A stretch of DNA of 64,000 bases from an uncultured Acidobacteriota bacterium (GTDB lineage Bacteria > Acidobacteriota > Vicinamibacteria > Vicinamibacterales > CAVVIG01): positions 290,695-354,694 of the forward strand of contig CAVYZX010000009.1 in NCBI GenBank assembly GCA_963773035.1. Direction: 5' to 3'. Shown piece by piece: positions 19,965 through 60,812 of this stretch (the stretch's first letter is position 1; each line of letters starts with the position of its first letter). The notes under the pieces are model-generated. The model saw only the letters and a list, made by a program, of their open reading frames with translations, was not told the origin of the DNA and made no database searches. The position numbers were made by a program, and so were the translations under genes.

Positions 19965-20007
19965 TCGAAGAGGGAGGCAACGTCAGGCTTCGGCCGTATC
20001 GTGGTGA

Positions 20008-22789
20008 ATGATGGCGGTGCAGCCAGGTTCGCGCGTCGGCGGATACGAGATCACGGCGCTCCTTGGGCGCGGAGGGATGGGCGAGGTGTATCGTGCCCGC
20101 GACACGAAGCTCGGGCGCGATGTGGCCATCAAGATCCTGCCCGACGTGTGGATGACCGATCCGGACCGGCGAGCCCGCCTGGACCGAGAGGCTCGAGTGC
20201 TCGCTTCGCTCAATCACCCGCACATCGGCGCGATCTACGGCACCGAGGAGAGCAGCGATTTCTCAGCGTTGGTGCTCGAGTTGGTCGAGGGCGAGACGCT
20301 TGCCGAGCGGCTGTCGCGCCTTGAGCCACCCCGTTCAAGCGCGCCGAGGTCAGGCCCCGGGTCGGCTCCAGGTCAGAAGGCCGGGTTACCGCTGAAGGAG
20401 GCCCTCGAGATCGCGCGCCAGATTGCTGACGCGCTGGACACCGCTCATGAAAGGGGCGTGATCCATCGCGATTTGAAGCCCGCGAACATCAAGATCAATC
20501 CGTCAGGCGTCGTCAAGGTCCTGGACTTCGGGCTGGCCACCTATCAGCCCGGTGCCACCGCTTTTGGAGACGCTGCGCCCGAATCGGCGAGCGATGCAGC
20601 GCACGCGCTCACGATGGCAGGCGGTACGCTCCCCGGCACGATTCTCGGCACGGCCGGGTACATGAGCCCCGAGCAGGCGCGAGGCAGGTCTGTCGATAAA
20701 CGGACGGACATCTGGGCGTTCGGGTGCGTGCTCTACGAGATGCTTTCGGGACGCCCGCCATTCGGCGGCGAAACCACTTCCGACGCGATCGCCGGCATCT
20801 TGGAGCGCGAACCCGAGTGGATCACGCTGCCAAGCAGCCTTCCGGCCGGCGTGCGAGGACTGCTTGAACGCTGCCTCGCGAAGGATCCGAAGCAACGCCT
20901 GCGTGACGTCGGCGAAGCGCGATTCGAGATAGAAAAGGCGCTCGCCTTGCCCAGTGCGCCGCCGGTGATGACCCATGTGCCGGCGGCCGGACGAACGACC
21001 GCACGATGGGTCGCCGTCGTCGCGGGGACGGCCGTTCTCTCGGGCACCGCCGTCTGGATGCTCACACCCCGATCCTCGCCGGCTCAGTCCGCGCTCTGGT
21101 CGGTGTCGCGTCTCGCGGTCTCCCCGCCCGCGGGCGTTCCTCTGGCCGTCGATACCTCGCGGGTCGCCGTGTCGCCCGATGGCCGCAGCGTCGCCTACGT
21201 CGCGGGTCGTGGCCGCCGTCAGCAGATTTACCTTCGAGATCTCGATCAATTCGACAGCATCCCGATCCCGGGCACCGAAGGCGCAAGCAACCCGTTCTTT
21301 TCGCCTGACAGCCAATGGCTCGGGTTCTCCGCCGCTGGAGGACTGAAAAAGGTGCTCCGCAGCGGCGGCACGCCATTGACGATCACCGAGGTAGCCGCGC
21401 TGTCTGTGACGTGGGCTTCGGAGCCGAGATGGCAGGCCGACGACACGATTCTTTTCACGCCCAACCTCGGCGCTGGCATCTGGCGGGTTTCTGCCGCTGG
21501 CGGAACGCCAAGCGCGGTGACAACGTTGGCGGACACCGAGCTCAGCCATCGTTGGCCGCAGACCTTGCCTGGCGGCAAAACCCTGCTATTCAGCGCATTC
21601 ACCGGCTCCGACGACGCCCAGATTTACGTTCAGTCACTCGAGACCGGCCAGCGCCGCCCGCTCGTGAAGGGGTCCGGCGCCAGCTATCTTCCCACCGGAC
21701 ACCTGGTCTATGTTCAGGCCGGCACCCTGATGGCGGTGCCGTTCGATTCCGCCCGCGTTGAAGCCACGGGGCCGGCAGTCGCGGTGTTGTCCGGCGTCAT
21801 GGAGATGACCCGGCTTCGCAACGGCACGCTCGCGAATCAAGCGCCGCAGGTCGGCTTCTCTGCCGCCGGCACAATGGCGTACGTTCCGGCAGGCAAGCCC
21901 CGCCAGACCGCGCTCACGTGGGTCGGTCGCGCCGGGGGCGAGATGCCCACGGGAGCGTCCGGCGGCACGTACTATCAGCCGCGCATCTCTCCAGACGGTG
22001 GGCGCGTGGCGGTGACCGTCCGAGGGGTGGACCGCGATGATGTGTGGTTGTACGACCTGACCCGCGAGACGTGGAGCCGGTTTACTTCGCAGGGGAACAA
22101 CGCCTTTCCGGTCTGGGCGCAGGATGGTCGCAGACTCACCTATGTCTCCGACAAAGCCGGTCTGGACAACATGTACTGGAAGCCATTGGACGGGCGCGGT
22201 CCGGAGGAGCGACTCGTGGCGAGTGAGCGGCCGAACTATCCCTTCTCTTGGTCGCGCGACGACGGCCCTGCTGTTCGTCTCCGTATCCCTTCGTGCCGCG
22301 CAGGATCTCTGGGTCCTTCGAACAGGTGGCGAGCGAAAGGCAGCCGCGTTTCTCGAGACGCCGTTTGTCGAGGGAGCGCCGGCGCTCTCGCCGGACGGTC
22401 GATGCGTCGCGTACGTGTCGGGCGAATCGGGTCGTAATGAGATTCAAGTCCGGCAGTTTCCGGACTCCGGAGAGAAGCTGACGATCTCGACCGAAGGCGG
22501 CAACGAGCCGGTCTGGTCGCGGAACGGTCGAGAGCTGTTCTATCGCAGTGGTGACGCGATGATGGCCGTCGAAGTCACGACGAATCCCGTGCTGAGCGCG
22601 AGCAAGCCGCGACGACTGTTCGAACGGCCCTATGAGCTCAGTTCTGCTCTTTGGCCTGATTATGACGTGTCACCCGACGGTCAGCGGTTCCTGATGGTCA
22701 AGATGGTCGACGAATCCGAGGTGCCCGCCCAGATCAACGTCGTACTGAACTGGTTCGACGAGTTGAAGCGCCTCGTGCCGCCAAAGTAG
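20008..22789 (+). CDS. Hanks-type Ser/Thr protein kinase with TM helix and TolB/PD40 beta-propeller repeats (frameshift near 22258)
   Basis: LGRGGMGEVY, VAIK, HRDLKPAN, DFG and GTAGYMSPE; SPDG repeats continue in ORF 22124-22789, ending VVLNWFDELKRLVP. Confidence 0.92.
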
Positions 22790-31959: not shown

Positions 31960-33178
31960 ATGAGTGGCTCCGGCAACGGTACTTACGAGCCGCGCGATCC
32001 AGTGCAGAGAGTTCTCTATCGATGGCGTGTTCGCGCACGATGGCGAGGGGCTGCGCTTTCGTCCGGCGCACCGCCTCACGCGGGACGAGGTCTCAGGGGT
32101 CGTGGCCTTCGTGGCGCAGCGGATCGACCGGTTGCTGTGGCGGCGGGTTTGGCCACGACAGGGAAGGAAAGCGAGGCGGTGGAGATCTGGGCGGACGAGG
32201 CGCCGGTGCTGGCTGGGCTGGCGGACGCATCGGTTCAAGGACTCACTGCGCTCGGGCCACGGGCCGGCGCCCGCGTGGCCCGCTAGGGCCGTCCGCCCGA
32301 GGAGGCGGCCCCGGTGGCGCTCGGCCCGTGTCACGCGAATGCGGGTGGCTTCGATCTCCACGCGGGGATCATGGTTCGGGCGGGCGAGCGCGAACGGCTC
32401 GAGCGGCTGTGTCGCTACACGTTACGGCCCCCGATTGCGCAGGCGCGGCTGCGCGTCGACGGAGAGGGGCAGGTCTTGATCACGTTGCGGCGTCCATGGG
32501 CGATGGCGCGACGCATCTGCGATTCGACCCCGTCGCGCTTCTGGAGCGCTTGGCGGTACTCATCCCGCGGCCGCGCATCAACCTGGTGCTGTACTATGGG
32601 CTCCTAGCGCCACGTGCTCCGTGGCGCCCGGCGGTCGTCGCCTCGGCCGGCTCGGAACGGTCGGATTCGGCGGCCGCCGTGTGTCCGGTCGCGGACGAAG
32701 GCGATGATTCCGCAGGCCGACGGCGTCCGCGGGGCTATTTGTGGGCCGAGCTGATGCGGCGGACGTTTGGGATCGACGTGCTCGACTGCCCGCGCTGTAG
32801 CGGCCGGCTGCGGTTGCTCGCGCTGATCGAGCACGTGCGCATCCTGGAACGCATCCTCGGGCATTTGGGCCTGCCCACGGACCGGCCGGAGCCGCGGCCC
32901 GCCCGCGCCCCGCCCCAGCCCGTCTGTGATCCCGACAGCCAATTGAGCGCGACAGATGAGACGTTCTGATCGCCTCGGCCGGGGTGTGCCTCGCCGCTGC
33001 TCGTCCTCCGCCTGCCGGGCGATTTGATCGCGCATGCCGGGCTTCACTGGAGCATACTCCAGTCTGGCGACGCGGCTAATCCGCGCTGTCTCAGAGGCGA
33101 GCGGGGTCCGATCACGGATCCTATGTTGCGCCGGCAAGCCCAGACAGCCGGCCACAGGCCGTTTATGCGGACTATCCG
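31960..33178 (+). mobile_element. Decayed ISCR/IS91-like rolling-circle element: transposase pseudogene 31960-32969 plus putative oriIS end
   Basis: YEPRDP...VLYR, IDGVF, GFDLHAG, LERLCRYTLRPP, LIPRPRINLVLYYG and WAELMRRTFGIDVLDCPRC, spread over several frames with an in-frame TAG at 32284; zinc-binding and HUH regions are missing. Confidence 0.85.
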
Positions 33179-33183
33179 CTCGA
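33085..33183 (+). repeat. Putative oriIS terminal repeat, copy 1
   Basis: About 99 nt, near-identical to 39633-39733; ends GTTTATGCGGACTATCCGCTCGA. Confidence 0.85.
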
Positions 33184-33778
33184 AGCTGAGATCCGCAAAC
33201 GCATCGCCAAGCTCGAGACTTACTACGGCTCGATCACCGGTTGCCGGGTCCTTGTGGAGCTTGTCCAGCGACATCATGAAACGGGGAATCGCTACCACGT
33301 ACGCATCGACCTTACGGTACCGGCTGAGGAAATCGTAGCGGCTCATGAAGCCAACCTGCACACGACAGCACGGGACGTTGGAGCCGCGAAGATCACGAAG
33401 CTGGCTGAGCTCGGTCCGGAACGGAAGCACGCACAGGTGGCTGTTCGCGAGGCGTTCGACGTCGCACGGCGGCGGCTCCAGGATTGCGCGCGACGACAGC
33501 GCGGCGCCGTGAAAGCAAGAGCGGCGCAGCCACGCGGTCGGGTCGCGCGGCTGTTCCCCATCGACGAGTACGGTTATATCGAGGCCGAGGACGGCCACGA
33601 AGTGTACTTCCAGAAGAGCAGCGTGCTCGGGAACGCTTTCGAACGCCTGACCGTCGGTGGCGCCGTGTCGTTCGTGGAGGAGCCCGGCGACAAGGGGCCG
33701 CAAGCGAGCACAGTCAAGCTCCTGCATCCGCGCCGGACGCGACACGCCTCTCGAACTGCACGAGCGGCTGGCCGCTGA
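33179..33778 (+). pseudogene. HPF/RaiA-family protein with C-terminal cold-shock domain, 5'-truncated at the IS end
   Basis: LEAEIRKRIAKLETYYGSITGCRVLVE...YHVRIDLTVP...AVREAFD and YGYIE..DG.EVYF...SV...GDKGPQASTV; no start codon between TAA 33077 and the homologous region. Confidence 0.85.
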
Positions 33779-33792
33779 AACAGAATCGCCGC

Positions 33793-35175
33793 ATGGCCAT
33801 TCAGCGGGACTCCCGCACGCGGAACGATCGGCGGGAGATCGTTGGGTGGCTCATATACGACTGGGCCAACTCGGCCTTCCAGACCACGGTCGTCACGGTG
33901 TTGATCGGCCCGTATTTGACCGACCTGGCTCAACGGGACGTTGGAAGAAACGGGATCGTCGCAAGTCTCGGCCCGTTCGGCAGTATTACGGCAACGTCGC
34001 TGTTCCCGTATTGCATCTCCGTGTCCGTCTTCCTGCAGGTGCTGCTTCTTCCGCTTCTTGGCGCTATCGCGGACTACACCCAGGCAGCGAAGCGCCTCAT
34101 GATCGCATTCTGCTACTCCGGAGTCGGTGCGACTTGCCTGCTCTTTTTCATCACTGGACGGCGGTATGTCATCGGCGGCCTGCTGCTCGTCCTGGCGAAC
34201 TTTGCGTTTGGCGTCACGATTGTCATGTACAACGCATTCCTTAACGACATCACGAGCGAGGACCGGCGGGACAAAGTGTCGAGTCAGGGGTACGCCATCG
34301 GCTACCTGGGTGGCGGGCTGCTCCTGGCGACGAATCTTGCCCTGTTGAGCTTCTCCGCGCAGGTAGGCATTTCAAGAGGACTGGCTGTTCGTATCTCGTT
34401 GCTGTCTGCAGGTCTTTGGTGGGGCGGCTTTGCGCTGATCACGTTCGCTCGGTTGAGGACTCGAGTGGCACGGCGCGCGCGAACATTGAAACGCTCGTAT
34501 CTTGGCATCGGTTTCGTTGAGCTCGGCGCACTCTGGCATCGGTTGCGGCAACTTCCGCATACGCGCCGCTACCTCATCGCCTATATGAGCTTCAATGATG
34601 CCATTCAGACCGTCATCTCAATTGCATCGGTGTTTCTGGCACAGGAGCTTTTCGTCGCACGTGGGTTGCCCGTGAACGAATCCTTCCTCATCGGCCTCGT
34701 GTTGATGGTGCAATTCGTCGCGTTTGGCGGTGCGCTTCTCTTCGAGCGCATTGCCGCGCTGCTCGGCACCAAGAACGCGATCCTTGTCTCGCTCGTCTTG
34801 TGGACCGGCATCGTCATTTACGCGTTTGCGTTTCTCGAGACGGTTGCTCAGGCCTGGGTGATGGGTGCCGTGCTGGCTACCGTGCTCGGCGGATCTCAGG
34901 CGCTCTCGCGATCGCTGTTTTCGCAGATCATCCCGGTCGGGCACGAGGCGACGTTCTTCGGGCTGTACGAGATCACTGAACGCGGAACTTCGTGGATCGG
35001 TCCCCTCCTTTTCGGCTTCGTCGTGAGCACGACCGGTTCTTATCGCCAGGCTATCGTGTCGCTCATCCTCCTGTTCCTTGCCGGAATCGTCGGATAGCTC
35101 TTCACGAACGTTGAACGAGCCGCGCAGGACGCTCGCCAGCTCCTGCCGGCTGAAGGTGCAGGCACTGCGCGCTGA
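33793..35175 (+). CDS. UMF1/Atg22-family MFS transporter (in-frame TAG at 35095-35097 in the last TM segment)
   Basis: W..YDWANSAF, PLLGAIAD, YNAFL, GYLGG and GGSQALSRSLF; the frame continues LFTNVERAAQDA after the TAG. Confidence 0.85.
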
Positions 35176-49646: not shown

Positions 49647-50198
49647 ATGATGCGGACGCTTGCCATTGCTGTCATGTGCTGTGCCGTTTACGCGACTAGC
49701 TCGCTCGTGGGATTGGCGGGCCAGACTCAGTCCGGCGGCCGGTCCGTTGAAGCCAGGCTACGAGCCCTCGAGGACAAAGAAGCAATCCACGGGCTGATGA
49801 TGACCTACGGTCGCACGTTGGACGCGCGTGATTTCGCAGGATTCGAGCAGCTCTGGGCCCGGGAGAGCGAGTTCGTTGGCGGACCCGGTGGCGCTGCGAA
49901 AGGGCCGGCAGCTACACGGGCGTTGCTGGAGAGCCTGCTGAAAGCCAACGCCGCGCCTGAGCCCGGCCGGGACTTCCATCTGTTCTCGAACGAGACCATC
50001 GATGTCCAGGGCGACAGGGCCACGGCATTGAGCAAGGGCGCGTTTGTCGTCAGGGGCCAGAACAACCGCCTCGAAACGACGATTCTTGCGAATTACCACG
50101 ATCAATTTGTTCGTGAAGATGGTCGTTGGAAGTTCAACCGGCGCCAGATTGGCGACAGCCCTGCCCCTGCGGTCGCACCTCGCGCAGACCAGCGTTAG
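49647..50198 (+). CDS. Secreted NTF2/SnoaL-like protein
   Basis: AAGGAGG RBS; RL.ALEDKEAI..L...YG..LD and Y.D.FVREDGRWKF..R. Confidence 0.85.
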   Translation: MMRTLAIAVMCCAVYATSSLVGLAGQTQSGGRSVEARLRALEDKEAIHGLMMTYGRTLDARDFAGFEQLWARESEFVGGPGGAAKGPAATRALLESLLKANAAPEPGRDFHLFSNETIDVQGDRATALSKGAFVVRGQNNRLETTILANYHDQFVREDGRWKFNRRQIGDSPAPAVAPRADQR

Positions 50199-51160
50199 TC
50201 GCGCGTGCAGTTGCGGCCGGATTCCTTCGCGCGGTAAAGGGCCTCATCGGCTCGTTGCACCAACGCCGCGAGCGATTCGTTGCGCGTCGCCGTGGCCACG
50301 CCAATCGATACGGTGATCTGCGTCACGTTGTCGCGCTTACCCTCGGCCCCATTGGCCTGAATCGCCAGACGCAGGCGTTCGGCGACCTGGAGCGCTTGTG
50401 GTTGCCCGAGTCCCGGCAACAGGACCGCGAACTCCTCACCGCCATACCGCGCCAGCGAATCCTGCGGTCGAAGGCCGGTCGCCAGTGTGTGCGCCACCCG
50501 ACGAAGCACGGCGTCGCCGGCGGGGTGACCGTAAGTGTCGTTGACCTGTTTGAAACGATCGATGTCGATCATCAACAGCGAGAGTGGCTGGTTCGCCCGT
50601 GCGGCCCGCGACAGCTGTCGGGCGAACGCGTCGTCGAGCCAGCGTCGATTGCGCAGGCCGGTCAAGCTGTCGACGGTGACCAAGCGTTGGAGCTGCCGAT
50701 GTTCACGGCCGGACTCGCCCAGCGCCGCGTCGTCGGCCCGAACGCGTCCAGCCAGGATACCAAGAAGATTGCGCGCCACCTCGGCTGATGAATCGATCAG
50801 CGACCACAGCCGCTCGCGATCGAGTGCCAGCACGAGCGTCTGGGCGTCCGCCACCACATCGGCCGACACCTGTTGGCCGTCGAGGAACGACAGCTCGCCA
50901 ACGCATTCGCCGGCGCCCAGCCGGACGTGAGGTTCATCGACGCCGGGTACACGCACGCTGACCTGGCCGGAGAGGATGATGTACAGAACGTCGTTTTCGG
51001 TTCCGGCGCGTAACAGCGTTTCTGTGGCGGAGAGCTGGCGCGTCTGGCAGCCCCTTAGTGCCGCAACTACCAGCTCCTCGGGCACGTTCCGGAAGAGTCG
51101 CGCGCGGAGAAGCCCCTCCTGCAGGTCGCCCGTGCAATCGTGAAGGAATTGGCTAGGCAA
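50195..51160 (-). CDS. Diguanylate cyclase with N-terminal cNMP-binding-like domain
   Basis: GECVGELSFLDG, DSLTGL.NRR, IDIDRFK.VND.YGH..GD, RPQD I-site and GGEEF. Start uncertain (TTG 51160 or 51181). Confidence 0.92.
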   Translation of the reverse strand: MPSQFLHDCTGDLQEGLLRARLFRNVPEELVVAALRGCQTRQLSATETLLRAGTENDVLYIILSGQVSVRVPGVDEPHVRLGAGECVGELSFLDGQQVSADVVADAQTLVLALDRERLWSLIDSSAEVARNLLGILAGRVRADDAALGESGREHRQLQRLVTVDSLTGLRNRRWLDDAFARQLSRAARANQPLSLLMIDIDRFKQVNDTYGHPAGDAVLRRVAHTLATGLRPQDSLARYGGEEFAVLLPGLGQPQALQVAERLRLAIQANGAEGKRDNVTQITVSIGVATATRNESLAALVQRADEALYRAKESGRNCTRD

Positions 51161-52286
51161 TGGCCTGTTTGAAGGTGGCAAGCTCGCCAGCCGTCACGTT
51201 CGATTTCACGATCGCCGGGTTGCCGCCTCCTTTTGCCGCACGGTCGGGACCGACGCCTCGTGCGCCTCCTGAGGCCGAAACCTGCGCGCTTTCTTTTTCG
51301 GGCGCCACGGTCGGCTTCAGTAAGCCGATACCGAAGCCCTTCTTCTTGGGCTCTTCCTTCGGCGCGTCCTTGGATTCGTCTTTCTTCGGCGCCTGTTCAG
51401 CCGACTTCGTCGATCCTGTCAGTCCGCTGGCACCGTCGGGAACAGCGGCGATGGACGTAATAGGCATTGGTTCGTACTTGACGTTGGACTTGTAGCGCAC
51501 TTCGACGAGCGCGCCATTCTTGGCCGCCGCCATCTGCTTGATCTTGGCAATCCGCTCCTTCGTTTCGGGGTGCGACGCAAAGAGCCCGTTTTTCTCGGGC
51601 TGCTCCTTGTTGCGGTCGTCCAGTCGAACGAGGAAGTCGCCGAGCGATCCCGAGGCATAGCCGACTTTCTGCGTCAGATCGACAGAGACCTTGTCGGCAT
51701 CGAGCTCGTCGCCGCGGTCGAAGTTGTTTTCCAGCACCATCTCGTACGCCCGGTTTGCGAGGTGGTCGAGAAGCGGGGCCCGATCCGACAGGGTCTCTTT
51801 GGTTCCCATCTGTACGGCCTTGTTCTTCCGGATGGCGTTGATCGTGTGCTTTCGCGTGACATGGCCGATCTCGTGCGCGAGGACGCCGGCCAGCTCAGCT
51901 TCGCTGCGGATGAGACCCAGAGCGCCGCGCGTGACGTGGACGAGACCGCCAGGCGAGGCAAAGGCGTTGACGCCGTCGGTGTCGAGCACGATGAAGGTCC
52001 AGGCCAGATTCGGGCGGTCGGAAGCTTTTGCCAGGGTCATGCCGACGAGGGCCACGTACTTGTGAACCGCCACGTCCTGCACGACTCCGAACCGTCCGCG
52101 AATCTTGGCGCTGACGTCCTCGCCGATACTGCGCTCTTCGGTTTCCGAGATCGTCAGTTCGTCGATCTTCTCTTTCTGCTCGGCTGCTTTTTTCAGCGTT
52201 CCGCCGAGGCCGCCAAACTGCGCAAGCGCCGGCGATCCGGTCAAGAGCAGTGCAGTGACGAGCATCGCCTTCAGAACGTCCTTCAT
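51153..52286 (-). CDS. Exported M48 family zinc metallopeptidase
   Basis: Signal peptide; VNAFASPGG, EAELAGVLAHEIGH, ELDAD and SHP...ERI. Confidence 0.92.
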   Translation of the reverse strand: MKDVLKAMLVTALLLTGSPALAQFGGLGGTLKKAAEQKEKIDELTISETEERSIGEDVSAKIRGRFGVVQDVAVHKYVALVGMTLAKASDRPNLAWTFIVLDTDGVNAFASPGGLVHVTRGALGLIRSEAELAGVLAHEIGHVTRKHTINAIRKNKAVQMGTKETLSDRAPLLDHLANRAYEMVLENNFDRGDELDADKVSVDLTQKVGYASGSLGDFLVRLDDRNKEQPEKNGLFASHPETKERIAKIKQMAAAKNGALVEVRYKSNVKYEPMPITSIAAVPDGASGLTGSTKSAEQAPKKDESKDAPKEEPKKKGFGIGLLKPTVAPEKESAQVSASGGARGVGPDRAAKGGGNPAIVKSNVTAGELATFKQAIA

Positions 52287-52326
52287 ATTCGCCCCTGGAT
52301 TCAGTGTGCGTTTGGAAGGGCAGGTC

Positions 52327-54366
52327 TCAAGGCTCGCCGCGACCGGGTTTTTCGTCAGCGCGGCCGACGACTTCGGAAATGGCCACCGGTTGCGTTTTGC
52401 CTTTCACCACGACTTCGCCCAGAGCCCTGAAGTTGTATCGGCCGACCAGGCGCTGTCTTGTAGCTTCACTGATGAGTATTCGCGTTCCGTACTGCTTGTT
52501 CAAAGACTCCAGGCGGGCGCCCAGGTTGACGGCATCGCCGATCACCGTGTAGCTCATGATCGCTTCCGACCCGAAGTTTCCGGCAATCATGTCTCCGGAG
52601 TTGATGCCGATGCCGATATCCAAGTCGGCCAAACGCCCCTCGCGAGCCCACCCTTCGTTCAGCTTCTGAAGCTCGGCGACCATGTCGAGCGCGGCCTCAA
52701 CCGCGTGATCGGCATGTCTGGGGTCGTCTACCGGCGCGCCGAACAGCGCCATGACCATATCTCCAACGAACTTGTCGAGCGTCCCGTCATAGCGGAACAC
52801 GATCTCCACCATCTTCGTGAAGTATTCGTTGAGCATGTCGACGATGGCTTCAGGCTGGCCGCGTTCGGTGATGGTCGTGAAACCGCGGATGTCGGAGAAG
52901 AGCACGGTCATGTCGCGGCGATGGCCGCCGAGCCGCGCAAGCTCTGGGTGAGTGACGAGCTGTTCGAGCACGTCCTTCGACACGTACTGGCCGAACAGCC
53001 GCTTCATCTTGCGCTTGTCCCGGCCCTCGACGAAATACTGATAGGTCACGCCTCCAAACAGTGCCACCGACGCCGCCAGCACTGGCTGAGAGAGGTTGAT
53101 CCAGTGCCCGGCTGCGAAGAATCGTGTCGTCGCCCATCCAAACAGGGCGATGGCGAGGACTGTTGCGCCAGTTGCCCACCATGCGGGGATGGTGGTGGCG
53201 ACAAGGCCGATCGCCATGGCTGACACAAGGACTGTGACGATGCGCACGAGGTTACTGGCAGGTCTCAAGAATCGATTCGAGAGCACATCGTCGGCGACAG
53301 CCGCGTGCACTTGAATTCCAGGCATTCGAGCGCCGGCGAACGGAGTCGGGAAGACGTCGAACAGGCCGGCGGCCGTGACACCTACGAAAACGATCTTGTC
53401 TTTGAAGGCGGCGGGATCGACGTTGGGCTTCTGATTCGACAGAAGCTGCTCCTCCGAATAGAGGAGATCGAAGAAGGCGTACCGAGGATAAGGTCGGCTC
53501 TTCAAGTCTTCGAGTAAGGCAGGGCCCCGAAAGTCGATCAGTCCCCACAGATAGGACTTCACACCGTCCGGACTCTTGACCCGTCTCATCGAGAGCGGCA
53601 TCAATCGATCTCCCAACTGGAGATCCTCGTTCCCCATGCGAACCGTACCGGGATTGATGTTGGCCGCGCGAAGTGCGGCGGCCAGCCCCAACGACGGAAG
53701 CGCTCGATCGCCGACGCGGACGAACGGCACCGTGTGGCGAAGCGGGCCGTCCGAATCCAAAACGAAAAGGTTGTGGCCGAACCCTGAAGCTGCGTCAGCG
53801 AGGCCCTTGAACGGCGGAAATACGACTTTCCGCTCCACCAGGAGCGGAGAGCTCAACCGGAAGTCTGTATCCCCGATCGCTGGCGTTTTCTCGAGGGCCT
53901 CGCCTTCGTACGTGGCATCGGCAAGAAGGATGACGTTTCCGGATTTCTTGATCGAGTCTGCCAACGCCCGGTCGGACTCCGCGCCCGACCATGTATCGCC
54001 ACCGAATTCGAACCCCACACGTGAGTCGGCCTCGGCGAAGTTCACATCGTAGGCAACGATCCTGGCCGGCGCGCGAGCGAGATAGTCGATCAACATCGAA
54101 TGCACGGCACGCGGCCACGGCCAACGGCCCGCGTTCGGCTGCAGGTTCCGAAGGCTGTACTCATCGATCTCGACGAGCGCCAGGTCCTGCCGGGCGGTCG
54201 ACGGCTTCGCCGTCACGCTCAAGCGCCAGTCGTAGGTTTTCAGCTCGATGGTTTGAAGGGGATGGAAGCCGACACCGCCCGACGTCGTGCTGAACGAGGC
54301 ATCGAGACCAAGAATCAGTGCGGCTGCACCTATTCCAATCACGATACCCGCGACAGCTTTTTGCAC
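52327..54366 (-). CDS. CHASE2-domain class III adenylate cyclase
   Basis: IDEYSL...GRWPWPR, D.DG..R, MPG..VHA, three TM segments, FSDIRGFT, DKFVGD and YTVIGDAVNLGARLE. Confidence 0.93.
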   Translation of the reverse strand: MQKAVAGIVIGIGAAALILGLDASFSTTSGGVGFHPLQTIELKTYDWRLSVTAKPSTARQDLALVEIDEYSLRNLQPNAGRWPWPRAVHSMLIDYLARAPARIVAYDVNFAEADSRVGFEFGGDTWSGAESDRALADSIKKSGNVILLADATYEGEALEKTPAIGDTDFRLSSPLLVERKVVFPPFKGLADAASGFGHNLFVLDSDGPLRHTVPFVRVGDRALPSLGLAAALRAANINPGTVRMGNEDLQLGDRLMPLSMRRVKSPDGVKSYLWGLIDFRGPALLEDLKSRPYPRYAFFDLLYSEEQLLSNQKPNVDPAAFKDKIVFVGVTAAGLFDVFPTPFAGARMPGIQVHAAVADDVLSNRFLRPASNLVRIVTVLVSAMAIGLVATTIPAWWATGATVLAIALFGWATTRFFAAGHWINLSQPVLAASVALFGGVTYQYFVEGRDKRKMKRLFGQYVSKDVLEQLVTHPELARLGGHRRDMTVLFSDIRGFTTITERGQPEAIVDMLNEYFTKMVEIVFRYDGTLDKFVGDMVMALFGAPVDDPRHADHAVEAALDMVAELQKLNEGWAREGRLADLDIGIGINSGDMIAGNFGSEAIMSYTVIGDAVNLGARLESLNKQYGTRILISEATRQRLVGRYNFRALGEVVVKGKTQPVAISEVVGRADEKPGRGEP

Positions 54367-54398
54367 GAGTGACCGCTATAGTACCATCCCGGCCACAC

Positions 54399-55820
54399 AT
54401 GATCATCGGCATCGTCCTGATCCTCGTTGCGCTGGCTTTCTATGGCGCGAGTACGAACCGACACGTTCGCGGTCGGTTGCGCGGGTCGATTTTCGCATTC
54501 GCGATGTATGCGATTGTGGCCACGACGTTGCGTTACTCCGGCCTGTCCGTCGGAATGGAGGAGGCGCTTAAACTGATCGCGCCGCTGTTCGTCGGGTTTG
54601 GAGTCATCAATGCTCTGGTCGCGCTTGCGATCAATCCGTGGCGGATCGACCGGCTTCCGGATCGCTTTCCAACGATCGTTCAAGACACCATCGTCATTGC
54701 GCTCTTCGCTCTCGCGGCGGCGATCATCTTGCAGGAGCGTGTGTTCACGACTACCGCGGTCGGCGCCGTGGTCATCGGCTTCGCCCTTCAGGACACGCTC
54801 GGCAACTTGTTTGCGGGCCTGGCCATTCAGATCGAGAAGCCGTTTCGCGTCGGACACTGGGTCCACATCGGCGGGAAAGACGGGCTGGTCACCGAAATCA
54901 CCTGGCGGGCTACCAAGTTGAGAACCAAGGCTGGAAATTTCGTGATCGTGCCCAACAGCGCGCTGTCGCGCGACACGATCATGAACTACTCCGAACCATC
55001 GACCGAGACGCTCATCGAAGTCGATGTCGGCGCCAGCTACGACGTCCCACCCAACGAAGTCAAAGCCACGATTCTCGCCGCCATCAGAGACGGAGCGCTC
55101 ATGTCTCGAGCCAAGCAGCCCGAGGTGCTGCTGGTGGACTTCGCTGCCTCGGCGATCGTGTATCGGATTCGTGTGTGGACCACAGAGTTTGCTGCGGACG
55201 AGCAGCTCCGCGACCATATCCGCTCCGCGGTCTACTACGCGTTCCGGCGCAGCGGCATTGTCATCCCGTACCCGATCCAGGTGGAGATTCAAGAAGAGGC
55301 CAAGCCTTCGGCATCCGATTCGGCGACTGCCGAGCAGCTGCTTCAACAAGTGTCGATTCTCTCGGCGTTGACCGACGAAGAACGAGCCGAGCTGGCACGC
55401 GGCGCCAAGCGGAGTCTTTTCGCAGCGGGCGAGACGATTGTCAGGCAAGGCGAAGCCGGAAGCTCGATGTTCGTCGTGTCACGCGGAGCTGCAACCGTCA
55501 CCTTGGAGCCAGGAAACCAGGAAGTCGCTCGCATCGAACGGGGAGGTTTCTTTGGCGAAATGTCGCTTCTTACAGGGGATCCGCGGACTGCGACCGTTCG
55601 GACGGCGGTCGATTCGGAGCTTTTGGAGATTACCGTCGAGGCTTTCCGCCGTTTTGTACTTGCCAATCCGTCTGCGGTGGATCAGATCGGCGAAGCAGTC
55701 GCTGTGAGACGAGCCGAACTGTCGCAGCACGCAGCAGCCAGCGCCGCCGGTGTGGTAGCCGAGCCACCCGAAAGGCTTCTCAGCCGCGTCCGCCGCTTTC
55801 TTCGGCTCTCCGTGGCTTGA
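54399..55820 (+). CDS. MscS-family channel with C-terminal cyclic-nucleotide-binding domain
   Basis: IGFALQDTLGNLFAG, PFRVG.W, WRAT and VPNS; FFGEMSLLTGDPRTATV phosphate-binding cassette. Confidence 0.93.
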   Translation: MIIGIVLILVALAFYGASTNRHVRGRLRGSIFAFAMYAIVATTLRYSGLSVGMEEALKLIAPLFVGFGVINALVALAINPWRIDRLPDRFPTIVQDTIVIALFALAAAIILQERVFTTTAVGAVVIGFALQDTLGNLFAGLAIQIEKPFRVGHWVHIGGKDGLVTEITWRATKLRTKAGNFVIVPNSALSRDTIMNYSEPSTETLIEVDVGASYDVPPNEVKATILAAIRDGALMSRAKQPEVLLVDFAASAIVYRIRVWTTEFAADEQLRDHIRSAVYYAFRRSGIVIPYPIQVEIQEEAKPSASDSATAEQLLQQVSILSALTDEERAELARGAKRSLFAAGETIVRQGEAGSSMFVVSRGAATVTLEPGNQEVARIERGGFFGEMSLLTGDPRTATVRTAVDSELLEITVEAFRRFVLANPSAVDQIGEAVAVRRAELSQHAAASAAGVVAEPPERLLSRVRRFLRLSVA

Positions 55821-55881: not shown

Positions 55882-56553
55882 TTAGTACTGCTTGTCCGCC
55901 CAGACGAACGGAGTCTTCTCGTTTGCCTGCAGCGTGTCGCCGGGAGGGGCTCCCGCCAGATTGTTGAACCCGCTCAAGCTCTTGTGAATGGCCGCCTCCG
56001 CCCCGAGAATGTGGCCCTCTTTGTCGAGCGTCAGACGAGCGACAGGATGCTCGACGAGGTAGAGATTTCCGTCGGAATTCATCGTCGCGACCCGGATGCC
56101 GAGAAATGCGCTTCCCTGTGACAATGCCACGGGCTCTTCGACGTCGGCGGCTACGAGCTTCGCCGCCAGCGAGACGACCTCGACGCCTCCGGCTTTGATG
56201 GTCGTCGGCACTTTCGGATCGGTCGGCGGAATATCGGCGTGGACGCGTCCCACGATAGGAACCCACCGCAGATTCGGCGTGTCGCGGCGGCCCCACAATG
56301 CCGGCTCGATACGCAGCAGTGCTGCGTCCCGGTTGCCGCCGTTGGAAAACGCCACGGTTATGTAAAGTCCACCTTGGTTCGTGTTGTACGACACTTCGGT
56401 GACCGTGACGTCGAGCTGCTGCTTCGTGTAAATGTAGCTTCGATAAAAGCTGACGGTCGACAACGTCAGCGCCATGATTGCGATCATGACCGTGATGTCG
56501 AGTTTGGTTCGCTGCCTTCCCAGGTCGCTCTTCTCGTCGCTCGGCGTAGTCAT
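55882..56553 (-). CDS. Hypothetical membrane-anchored protein
   Basis: One N-terminal TM segment followed by a beta-rich domain; 5 nt from the upstream gene. Confidence 0.7.
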   Translation of the reverse strand: MTTPSDEKSDLGRQRTKLDITVMIAIMALTLSTVSFYRSYIYTKQQLDVTVTEVSYNTNQGGLYITVAFSNGGNRDAALLRIEPALWGRRDTPNLRWVPIVGRVHADIPPTDPKVPTTIKAGGVEVVSLAAKLVAADVEEPVALSQGSAFLGIRVATMNSDGNLYLVEHPVARLTLDKEGHILGAEAAIHKSLSGFNNLAGAPPGDTLQANEKTPFVWADKQY

Positions 56554-56558
56554 GTCTT

Positions 56559-57047
56559 TTATTGGGTTGATTGTTTCTCGATCTTTCCGAACATGTGCCC
56601 GCCGACCGGGCCATGCTGCCACGTTCCGGCATAGCGATCGCCGTAAAAGAACACACGCGCTGTAAAAGTGCCCATCGACGGAATCGCGAAGTCGGTCAAC
56701 GTGATCATCGGCGTGTCGCCTGCCCAGAGCATCGTGACGACAATCGGCAGGGTCACGTCCACCTCGCCGTACCTCATCCTGGTGTTGAAGCGCCACCGGT
56801 TGTCGCCGACTTTTTCGACGCTCGAGATGTCGTAGCGATCCGGTCGTGCCGGTTGATCCTCACGTCCCGACACAGTGAACCGGCCGACAAGCGCCGAATT
56901 CTGCATCTGGTCCGTGAACTGCCGTTCCAACTGGGTGAGTGAGGCCGGATTCACGGTGGAGCCCAAGCCGGTCTTCGCGGCCAGCCACCCCACTGCAAAC
57001 GCGAAGAGAATCAGGACGACCGCAATCAGGAATCGCGCGAGCCGCAT
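56559..57047 (-). CDS. Conserved hypothetical exported protein
   Basis: AAGGAG RBS; signal/TM segment; WAGDTPMITLTD..IP..GTFTARV......YAGTW.H...GGH.FG. Confidence 0.8.
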   Translation of the reverse strand: MRLARFLIAVVLILFAFAVGWLAAKTGLGSTVNPASLTQLERQFTDQMQNSALVGRFTVSGREDQPARPDRYDISSVEKVGDNRWRFNTRMRYGEVDVTLPIVVTMLWAGDTPMITLTDFAIPSMGTFTARVFFYGDRYAGTWQHGPVGGHMFGKIEKQSTQ

Positions 57048-58938: not shown

Positions 58939-59486
58939 GGCGTAGTCCTTTCTGACTTCAAGAGATCGGCGACTTTCGCGACGCCGGCTTTCGCGCACGC
59001 ATCGTCCATTTCCTGACTCGATCCCGAGCTGCCCACGCCGCCGATCGTTTCGTTGCCGATCTGAATCGGTACACCGCCGCCCAGTGCCAGGATGTCGGCG
59101 ACATCGCGCTGCGGCGCGAGCGCGGGATCGTTCGCCGTACGTTTCTGAAATTCCAGCGTCGTCGTTCGGAACATTCGCGCCGTATAAGCTTTGCGCCGCG
59201 CCATCTCCGCTGTTTGCGGGCTGGCTGATTCGTCGCGGAGGATCACCAGTACCTGACCGGCACGGTCGACGACGACGGCCGATGTGTTGAAGCCTTTCGA
59301 CTTGCACTCAGCGACCGTTGCTTCGGCGATCGCTTTTGCCATCGGTAAAGAAACATTGCGCTGCATCACGACGCCCTGTGCGACCGCAGAGCGGCCTGCA
59401 ATCACGAACACCGCACAGGCGACGAGGGTGATTCCTATCAACGAATGTCGTGCGAGGATCATCGATGCCTCCCATCTATTGCTCAC
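58935..59486 (-). CDS. GlcG/HbpS family heme-binding protein, secreted
   Basis: VVDRAG, A.RKAYTA, GGVPI and IGGVGSSG....D..CA.AG. Confidence 0.9.
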   Translation of the reverse strand: MSNRWEASMILARHSLIGITLVACAVFVIAGRSAVAQGVVMQRNVSLPMAKAIAEATVAECKSKGFNTSAVVVDRAGQVLVILRDESASPQTAEMARRKAYTARMFRTTTLEFQKRTANDPALAPQRDVADILALGGGVPIQIGNETIGGVGSSGSSQEMDDACAKAGVAKVADLLKSERTTP

Positions 59487-60109
59487 CGGGGTCGAGCTCC
59501 AACCGGCCGCACCGACACGATGCGATTATCGAAACCGAAGTCCTTGAGATCCGATTGGCTTTCAGAGAGGCGCAGGCACGGAGGCGCCCAGTTCTGTCCC
59601 GCGCAGACCTCCCACGTCCCGCCATAAATCTGGAGGCTCTCAGCGCGCCCGGCGCCAGAGATGATGCTTTGCGCACTATCGATGGTCCACGAGCCGCCGC
59701 GATAGCGCGTCTGGTCGAACAGTACGATCCGCGAGCGGGTGAAGGGAGGAGACTGTCCAGGGTTCGATCCACCGCGTACTTGACGCAACGACCCGATCTG
59801 GTCGTTCCAGTTCACTTTGCGCAAATCGGGCTCTGAGCCCGAAAACACCTGGCAGCGCCCCTGGAAGTTGGCGTCTTCGCACCCTTCCCACAGTTCGCCG
59901 GGCGCGACGCGCAGGCTGGAAATCCGGCGAAACATCCCGTACCGGGTCAAGTCGGGAATCGCGTCGCGCACCGTGGCGTTGCGCCCTTTGAAGTCGACGT
60001 CCTCGTAGATCGTGATCCCGACACCGCCGATCTGTCGGTCCTGGGCAGACAGGGTGGTCACCAGCAGCGCCGCACACCATGCGAATACCGTCCCAAGTCT
60101 GCGTGCCAT
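59483..60109 (-). CDS. Secreted beta/gamma-crystallin domain protein
   Basis: GAGG RBS; signal peptide; Greek-key motifs YEDVDFKG...ISSLRV, WEGCEDANFQG...NDQIGSLR and FDNRIVSVR. Confidence 0.88.
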   Translation of the reverse strand: MARRLGTVFAWCAALLVTTLSAQDRQIGGVGITIYEDVDFKGRNATVRDAIPDLTRYGMFRRISSLRVAPGELWEGCEDANFQGRCQVFSGSEPDLRKVNWNDQIGSLRQVRGGSNPGQSPPFTRSRIVLFDQTRYRGGSWTIDSAQSIISGAGRAESLQIYGGTWEVCAGQNWAPPCLRLSESQSDLKDFGFDNRIVSVRPVGARPR

Positions 60110-60207
60110 CCGTTCTTCCTCCCTGGGTACGGCAAACGATACAACAATCGGCCGCCTACGGGACGCTCCGATTGGAGGGCTCGCGTCCGCTGACGCGCTC
60201 ACTCCTT

Positions 60208-60428
60208 TCAGTTGACCGTCCAGAGAGCGAGTGATGAGACGTCTTTGACGAACACGCGATTGCCCGAGATGGCGGGCTGCGCCCACGTTGCGTTTTCGGA
60301 AACGACGTACTGCTTCCCGAACTCGAGACCCGACCTGCTCCTTCGGGCAACGATTTGGACGGGCCGGGCTTCTGCCACACCAGCCTTCCGGTGGCCGTCT
60401 CGAAGGCGGAAACGATCCCGCTGTTGGC
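60208..60428 (-). pseudogene. Remnant of a PQQ-like (BamB-type) beta-propeller gene
   Basis: SGIVSAFETATGRLVWQKP joined out of frame to IVARRSRSGLEFGKQYVVSENATWAQPAISGNRVFVKDVSSLALWTVN-stop. Confidence 0.65.
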
Positions 60429-60539
60429 ACTGAGTTATTCCATGGCAGGTGGCGAAATATCGTCACCTTGGCGATCTTTCGCAGGCAGCAGACGGCCGAC
60501 AATGGCGCAGTTCCGCGAATTCCGCACCCGGCGCCGAAC

Positions 60540-60812
60540 ATGCTTATGTCGGTCGAAATGGTGAATCAGCGACTAGACAAGGCAAACCAGCTCGTGTCCG
60601 AGCTCCGGAAACGCATCAAAACATTCGCGCGCGCCGCTGAATCGGCCCTCGCACAGTCGACCTACGACGTTGAGATGCTGGCGCTCCATGAGCGGCGCAT
60701 CGCTGCACTTCAAGATAAAGTGGACGAACTCATTGCGATCGTTGCTGCCAGAAGATCGACGAACGGACTTCTTGGGCAGGGTTCGGCGGATCAAAACTGT
60801 GAGCAGTCATAG
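60540..60812 (+). CDS. Small hypothetical coiled-coil protein
   Basis: 90-aa ORF with amphipathic helical pattern; no clear RBS. Confidence 0.4.
   Translation: MLMSVEMVNQRLDKANQLVSELRKRIKTFARAAESALAQSTYDVEMLALHERRIAALQDKVDELIAIVAARRSTNGLLGQGSADQNCEQS

Follow-up and report, generated by a model that had tools for sequence, protein, structure and literature searches.

Gene content and layout of the locus

The locus considered here lies at positions 50195-55820 of a 64,000-nucleotide stretch of DNA (the window; positions 290,695 to 354,694 of contig CAVYZX010000009.1, assembly GCA_963773035.1) from an uncultured soil bacterium of the order Vicinamibacterales (Acidobacteriota, class Vicinamibacteria). 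It carries genes for a predicted CHASE2 adenylate cyclase, a periplasmic M48 peptidase, a protein in which a domain resembling cyclic nucleoside monophosphate (cNMP) binding domains precedes a GGDEF domain, and an MscS-type channel with a cNMP-binding domain (MscS-cNMP). The cyclase gene (52327-54366, minus strand, 679 aa) matches Pfam families CHASE2 (PF05226, 4.6e-52) and Guanylate_cyc (PF00211, 1.7e-27). By the open reading frame (ORF) coordinates, 40 nt separate its stop from the start of the protease gene (51153-52286, minus strand, 377 aa; Peptidase_M48, 1.4e-27). The GGDEF gene (50195-51181, minus strand, 328 aa; cNMP_binding 4e-17, GGDEF 3.2e-50) overlaps the protease gene by 29 nt if translation is taken to start from the TTG at 51181, or by 8 nt if it starts from the TTG at 51160, in which case the protein has 321 aa. 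The channel gene stands on the plus strand (ORF 54318-55820, first ATG at 54399; MS_channel_2nd 9.6e-21, MS_channel_3rd 5.8e-07, cNMP_binding 7.9e-21), head to head with the cyclase gene. An earlier reading of the sequence (the original prediction) had described these four genes and their domains together with the 40-nt gap, the overlap and the head-to-head spacing of about 32 nt, all of which agree with the ORFs and Pfam matches.

The divergent spacer between the GTG start of the cyclase (54366) and the ATG of the channel comprises 32 nt (54367-54398). The channel has alternative in-frame GTG starts at 54369 and 54318; use of the GTG at 54369 would leave a spacer of 2 nt and give an N-terminus that matches the orthologues in length, as judged from their alignment. 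Within the 32 nt lies a near-palindromic TATAGTA, a candidate -10 element in both directions. A consensus scan gave no sigma-70-like site in the spacer, with counts not different from those of shuffled sequence; the promoters of both genes therefore probably overlap coding sequence. Sampled words were present at a fraction of 0.07 in the single RNA run and of 0.20-0.28 in the other sequencing runs.

Conservation of the gene neighbourhood

Conservation was surveyed from the cyclase and from the protease. For the former, one genome per prokaryote species was used; 68 loci were obtained and compared with the four window proteins by tblastn. Loci with a full-length cyclase relative (43-76% identical) and downstream sequence were counted (35 in total), and L016, L030 and L033, which end inside the cyclase, were treated as uninformative. 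The closest relatives carry the labels Vicinamibacteria, Vicinamibacterales or Acidobacteriota. For the latter, 150 other genomes were sampled across the class, 49 from the order of the window and 101 from other orders; the unpublished genome G113 is included and counted among those without an orthologue. Both surveys draw on one species collection and are thus not independent of each other, nor are related genomes independent samples.

An M48 gene was the next gene downstream, on the same strand, in all 35 related cyclase loci. In 18 of 33 rows there is a 4-nt overlap between the start of its longest ORF and the stop of the cyclase gene, the other rows being mostly frameshifted assemblies or over-long ORFs. 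An MscS-cNMP gene was present in 25 of the 35 loci in three arrangements: directly downstream on the same strand (15 loci), downstream and convergent (five loci, and four more in which the gene is a 33-37% identical paralogue), or upstream and divergent as in the window (one locus, L017). Ten loci had none. A full-length orthologue of the cNMP-like/GGDEF gene was adjacent in a single locus (L003), which holds the closest cyclase relative (76% identical).

Full-length M48 orthologues (47-65% identical, C-terminal tail covered, E<=1e-87; one split by a frameshift) were found in 27 of the 150 genomes, that is, in 27 of the 49 from the order and in none of the 101 from other orders. Other M48 matches (E 1e-21 to 1e-37) covered only residues 45-255, and the frames that hold them are, at about 500 aa, as long as BepA. 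The cyclase was encoded directly upstream on the same strand in all 27 loci and the channel directly downstream on the same strand in 24; one of the remaining loci has a convergent channel paralogue, and two have no channel within the 1.5-kb flank, the respective genomes carrying a 59-61% identical orthologue elsewhere. Cyclase orthologues (E<1e-100) occurred in exactly the 27 genomes with the M48 orthologue. Channel orthologues (E<=1e-108) occurred in 26 of these, and the 27th has a 34% identical paralogue; among the 22 genomes of the order that lack the cyclase/M48 pair, no channel match at E<=1e-40 was found. As a control, the surroundings of 15 less closely related MscS-cNMP genes, either second copies or taken from other orders, were inspected, and no cyclase or M48 gene was found within about 5 kb of any of them.

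The conserved unit thus consists of three genes, those for the CHASE2 cyclase, the M48 protease and the MscS-type channel, which are gained and lost together, and normally they form one operon in the order cyclase-M48-channel. The head-to-head channel gene of the window is a local rearrangement of this ancestral operon. The synteny expected by the original prediction accordingly holds across the order for three of its four genes and fails for the GGDEF gene.

The CHASE2 cyclase

Class IIIb cyclases specific for ATP are marked by two metal-binding Asp residues, a substrate-specifying Lys, a Thr where class IIIa enzymes have Asp, and an Asn and an Arg that act in the transition state. The window protein displays these in the motifs FSDIRGFT (first metal Asp), DKFVGD (Lys and second Asp), YTVIGD (Thr) and AVNLGARLE (Asn and Arg). 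All six residues (D492, K532, D536, T607, N614 and R618), each already picked out in the original prediction, are invariant in 23 of 23 orthologues. The protein therefore carries the residue set of an ATP-specific class IIIb enzyme and is a predicted producer of cyclic AMP (cAMP); cyclic GMP (cGMP) was considered as the product and rejected on the strength of the invariant Lys/Thr pair.

Hydrophobic segments, read by eye from the translation, place one helix at the N-terminus, an extracytoplasmic CHASE2 domain at about residues 26-388, three further helices and a cytoplasmic catalytic domain. The PF05226 match (residues 33-387) sits where CHASE2 sensor proteins have this domain, and its GRWPWPR motif is invariant in the orthologues. 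A model of the CHASE2 domain, with a predicted local distance difference test (pLDDT) score of 90.7, found no match in the PDB by Foldseek at E<=0.001. The highest Z in a VIA-align comparison with 48,161 chains was 5.0 (C-terminal domains of Mur ligases, and subtilisins), below the level that the tool treats as meaningful, and no fold was assigned. Prediction of a complex between CHASE2 (residues 24-390) and the mature M48 protein (24-377) with custom-made alignments returned scores of 0.01 and 0.05, which speak neither for nor against contact between the two.

The M48 protease

The protease comprises a signal peptide with an AxA-type site, a BepA-like core (approximately residues 45-255), a linker rich in Lys, Glu and Pro, and a conserved C-terminal tail, which is kept in 22 orthologues of the order. 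It conforms to the M48 family: the zinc site is HEIGH, and all 23 sequences compared keep H138, E139, H142 and E194. Classification as a lipoprotein was rejected, there being no Cys after the signal peptide. Both sequence and fold place the core nearest to the solved chains of 3c37 (a Geobacter M48 peptidase) and BepA, with Foldseek E values of 3.7e-10 and 2.3e-09, respectively. Membership of the BepA equivalog is nevertheless excluded by a score of 97.2 bits against a cut-off of 570 (NCBIfam NF052400), the match being confined to residues 45-254, and Pfam gave no match to the TPR family. The model has a mean pLDDT of 75.8, with values below 50 for residues 286-344 and of about 90 for the final 30 residues. 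A Gly-rich segment after the linker is strongly conserved, though modelled as disordered, and would have the look expected of a docking or cleavage site.

The MscS-type channel

Matches to PF00924, PF21082 and PF00027 give the channel the domain composition seen in cyclic-nucleotide-gated MscS homologues from bacteria (bCNG channels). Its phosphate-binding cassette is canonical (FGEMSLLTGDPRTATV); all 17 sequences compared keep G386, E387, R396 and A398 of this cassette, and the pore-helix motif is likewise unchanged in them. It is the sole MscS-cNMP gene found in the genome at E<=1e-10.

The original works on bCNG channels (Caldwell 2010, Malcolm 2012) are cited in a 2026 review (PMC13591265). 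The available part of this review describes the channels as mostly cyanobacterial, reports that no structure of one was available, and states that their overexpression in E. coli gave no protection from hypo-osmotic shock; no cyclase/protease partner set is mentioned in that part.

The cNMP-like/GGDEF protein

The GGDEF domain has the motifs of a diguanylate cyclase, namely a GGEEF active site and, five residues upstream, RPQD as the RxxD I-site, which bears out the original reading of both as intact; the protein looks catalytically competent. In alignments to solved cyclic-nucleotide-binding (CNB) domains the preceding domain has Val where CRP of T. thermophilus (4ev0) and other CNB chains have the cassette Arg. 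The L003 orthologue (68% identical) shares this Val, and the Arg is missing from all eight full-length homologues (Val in five and Pro in three, among them L152-L156 and L158), two of the three with Pro having an Arg one or two positions earlier. Despite its PF00027 match (4e-17), the domain thus lacks the residue by which binding of cAMP or cGMP would be recognised. Its good matches include regulatory subunits of trypanosome protein kinase A (PKA), which are described in the available text of PMC10959531 as binding nucleosides and not cAMP. According to the same text, the cassette Arg of PKA neutralises the cyclic phosphate, and its restoration sufficed for a cyclic-nucleotide response in a CNB domain without Arg. 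The Glu that is tied there to nucleoside preference is also missing from the window domain.

The original prediction had both the channel and the GGDEF protein as cNMP-binding effectors. By sequence this would apply to the channel, with its canonical cassette, and probably not to the GGDEF protein. Because the cassette Arg is absent, the proposed tuning of cyclic di-GMP (c-di-GMP) by cAMP is doubtful; the domain more likely senses another ligand, or none, and the residue pattern suggests a ligand other than a cyclic nucleotide for this family as a whole.

As to its genomic position, no orthologue was found in the five genomes of the same family that were searched, and in genomes G028, G067 and G076 the orthologues lie away from the triad (in G028 about 130 kb off, on the same contig). 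The gene is a lineage-specific addition behind the protease gene and is probably co-expressed with the triad in the lineage of the window.

Other CHASE2 cyclases and their neighbours

Genomic context was available for 15 distant CHASE2 cyclases. An M48 gene was near one of them, with one gene between (L044, Bacteroidota-labelled), and a FecR-domain protein was encoded upstream of six, in four cases a large FecR-TPR-barrel protein. At L048 (49-4890, Scalindua-labelled), a CHASE2 cyclase gene is followed at once by that of an 862-aa protein that combines cNMP-binding and sigma-54 activator domains with a 4Fe-4S motif, a further cyclase-effector pair.

In the Bacteroidota-labelled order to which the L044 genome belongs, an orthologue of the L044-type protease was found in 20 of 81 sampled genomes, at 21 places (L130-L150), and at 20 of these a CHASE2 cyclase is encoded directly upstream on the same strand. 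In the L044 protease the C-terminal tail of the acidobacterial proteins is missing, and a long extension at the N-terminus is present instead. Since the pair is kept at 20 of 21 places without the channel, the cyclase-protease pair is the more general unit, to which the acidobacterial order has joined the channel as its output.

The window genome has a second CHASE2 protein, a CHASE2-HD-GYP protein (HD_5; G000:C38:357577-359592, corresponding to L071:6577-8592, minus strand), which is encoded near a small FecR-domain protein (L071:9254-9706). One genome thus holds two CHASE2 sensors with two different kinds of secreted neighbour, an M48 protease and a FecR-domain protein.

Genome context and neighbouring features

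The genome (7.6 Mb, 38 contigs, 99.2% complete) encodes two CHASE2 domains, two class III cyclase domains, one CYTH protein and 14 cNMP_binding matches, two of them within one 1241-aa open frame; a class I cyclase gave no match. The second class III cyclase domain belongs to a 1173-aa SAM-cyclase-AAA-TPR protein. With so few cyclases and 14 cNMP-binding matches, the module is not self-contained, contrary to the original prediction; the CHASE2 cyclase is probably a main regulated source of cAMP for many receivers. A likely cAMP receiver is encoded at G000:C38:44030-45634 (L072:2031-3635), where a 534-aa protein combines an N-terminal GNAT domain with a C-terminal cNMP-binding domain and may be a cAMP-regulated protein acetyltransferase.

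Within the window, an ORF of 304 aa (55882-56796, minus strand) converges on the channel gene; it encodes a single hydrophobic helix and gave no Pfam or NCBIfam match, and its long N-terminal part may be non-coding. At 59483-60541 (minus strand) lies the gene of a 352-aa protein that has two beta/gamma-crystallin domains and weakly matches peptidase inhibitor I36. The G+C content is 0.67-0.675 in the 2-kb stretches 20001-22000 and 32001-34000 and about 0.62 elsewhere in the window.

Interpretation and alternatives

The three conserved genes may be read as one signalling unit: cAMP would come from the CHASE2 receptor adenylate cyclase, the input from a dedicated M48 protease in the periplasm, and a bCNG-type channel would be the output; we give this reading an even chance. 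In such a unit the protease would serve as an input accessory of CHASE2, making or destroying a peptide ligand or cleaving the sensor or an inhibitor, and would fill the place that FecR-type or NsrA-type envelope proteins hold beside other CHASE2 sensors. The cyclase would convert the protease-linked event into cAMP, which would bind the canonical pocket of the channel and alter its gating, so that a fast ion or osmolyte response could follow without transcription; the cAMP would probably reach the other cNMP-binding proteins of the genome as well. A stronger version holds that CHASE2 receptors of this type are coupled to proteolysis, with M48 as the input device that cleaves an envelope or external protein, its own tail or the sensor, and with cAMP then acting directly on the bCNG channel to give flux within seconds and without transcription. 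This version is tentative, and we regard it as more probably wrong than right; if it is true, CHASE2 would gain an input and bCNG channels a physiological role at the same time.

Several observations weigh against the three-gene signalling unit. The M48 core is ordinary and BepA-like, and it is closer to housekeeping-type paralogues of the class (33-39% identity) than to the Bacteroidota operon protease (28%); the acidobacterial and Bacteroidota pairings may therefore be independent recruitments. None of the 21 Bacteroidota flanks contains an MscS-cNMP gene, and the two genomes with an unlinked channel gene belong to the window's own family. With 14 cNMP-binding matches in the genome, outputs other than the channel are possible. 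How cyclic nucleotides affect the gating of bCNG channels, like the physiological role of these channels, is given as unresolved in the available part of the 2026 review (PMC13591265). Control of the CHASE2 sensor by the protease, whether by contact, cleavage or regulation, is itself something that we infer.

The same evidence bears on other explanations. It might be supposed that M48 is a general periplasmic quality-control protease of the BepA type that merely shares a transcript with the cyclase, CHASE2 sensing something unrelated. The best family and structure matches, to the BepA protease domain and 3c37, fit this, as do the BepA-like paralogues of similar identity in many genomes of the class. 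A protease of general function would, however, hardly be expected to match the cyclase exactly in presence and absence (27 and 27 sampled genomes) and to lie immediately beside it in all 27 loci, start and stop often overlapping by 4 nt; moreover, its own conserved tail replaces the TPR domain of BepA, its equivalog score is 97 bits against the cut-off of 570, and the pairing recurs in a second phylum. We consider this explanation quite improbable. It is unlikely, too, though less remote, that the channel is mainly a tension-gated safety valve that the nucleotide domain modulates or locks, the unit then linking turgor control to osmotic stress or stress of the envelope. The full conservation of the MscS pore helix and beta domain speaks for this, as does the fact that the gene is the only one of its type in the genome; against this stand the lack of hypo-osmotic protection by overexpressed bCNG channels in E. 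coli, reported in the accessible part of PMC13591265, and the strict co-inheritance with the cyclase, which points to the nucleotide as the relevant input.

The circuit of four genes put forward in the original prediction, in which cAMP would bind both the channel and the cNMP-GGDEF protein and so tune c-di-GMP directly, as cGMP does for XC_0249 of Xanthomonas, appears rather doubtful. Its GGDEF gene begins ahead of the M48 stop and very probably shares the transcript, the GGEEF and RxxD sites are intact, L003 has the same arrangement, and a linked cyclase/cNMP-GGDEF pair has a precedent in the available account of Xanthomonas (PMC3770947). The family has nevertheless replaced, in eight of eight members, the very Arg that neutralises the cyclic phosphate in PKA and whose restoration gave a cyclic-nucleotide response (PMC10959531, as far as available), and the gene is adjacent in only one of 35 related loci, with orthologues away from the triad in three other genomes.

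For the signalling unit of three genes, the component families (CHASE2 cyclase, M48 protease and bCNG-type channel) are all known, and its value is incremental rather than surprising. The co-inherited cyclase, intact protease and channel supply natural partners for two open questions, the input of CHASE2 and the role of bCNG channels. To these the window adds a rearranged variant of the triad and an Arg-less CNB-GGDEF family, in which a CNB domain may once more have been re-tuned to a different ligand.

Comparison with known systems

No publication on a CHASE2/M48 pairing, or on a bCNG channel in such a unit, was found among the titles and abstracts listed by a search that left subscription papers, including the original bCNG paper, outside its scope. 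The view that the four-gene circuit had not been characterised holds to that extent; its conserved core is, however, of three genes, and linkage of a cyclase with a cNMP-GGDEF protein has a precedent. In Xanthomonas, the linked guanylate cyclase XC_0250 and cNMP-GGDEF protein XC_0249, with cGMP acting on the latter, were demonstrated experimentally according to the available text of PMC3770947. In both cases the gene of a class III cyclase is linked to one whose product joins a cNMP-type domain to a GGDEF domain that looks active. The window cyclase differs in its adenylate-type Lys/Thr pair and its CHASE2 input, the cNMP-like domain is without the cassette Arg, and the GGDEF gene stands outside the conserved core; a conserved linkage of the Xanthomonas type was not found, the two genes being adjacent only in the window and in L003.

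With BepA (YfgC) and 3c37 the protease shares the M48 catalytic fold, the zinc site and, by its signal peptide, a periplasmic location. Unlike BepA, it has no TPR domain; a linker of low complexity and a conserved tail form its C-terminal part, and it goes strictly together with a CHASE2 cyclase.

A 2016 paper (PMC5192318), in the part available, describes ligand recognition by CHASE2 domains as not known and presents a LysM-FecR protein of Burkholderia together with a CHASE2 histidine kinase, a FecR partner of a CHASE2 sensor. As there, a secreted accessory is encoded here beside the CHASE2 sensor; it is of another family, and its catalytic site is intact. The CHASE2 receptor cyclases CyaD1, CyaD2 and CyaK of Sinorhizobium meliloti are likewise served by a dedicated envelope accessory, the outer-membrane protein NsrA, with Clr as the regulator, and they produce cAMP in response to a protein signal, plant uL2 (PMC13001267, as far as the text is available). 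Because these cyclases answer a protein signal through an envelope accessory, a protease in the accessory role is plausible. Here, by contrast, the accessory is a soluble M48 protease and not a beta-barrel, and the linked effector is an ion channel and not a CRP-type regulator. From the bCNG channels as reviewed, finally, the channel of this locus differs in that, in an acidobacterial order, it is inherited together with a receptor cyclase and a protease and is usually transcribed with them.

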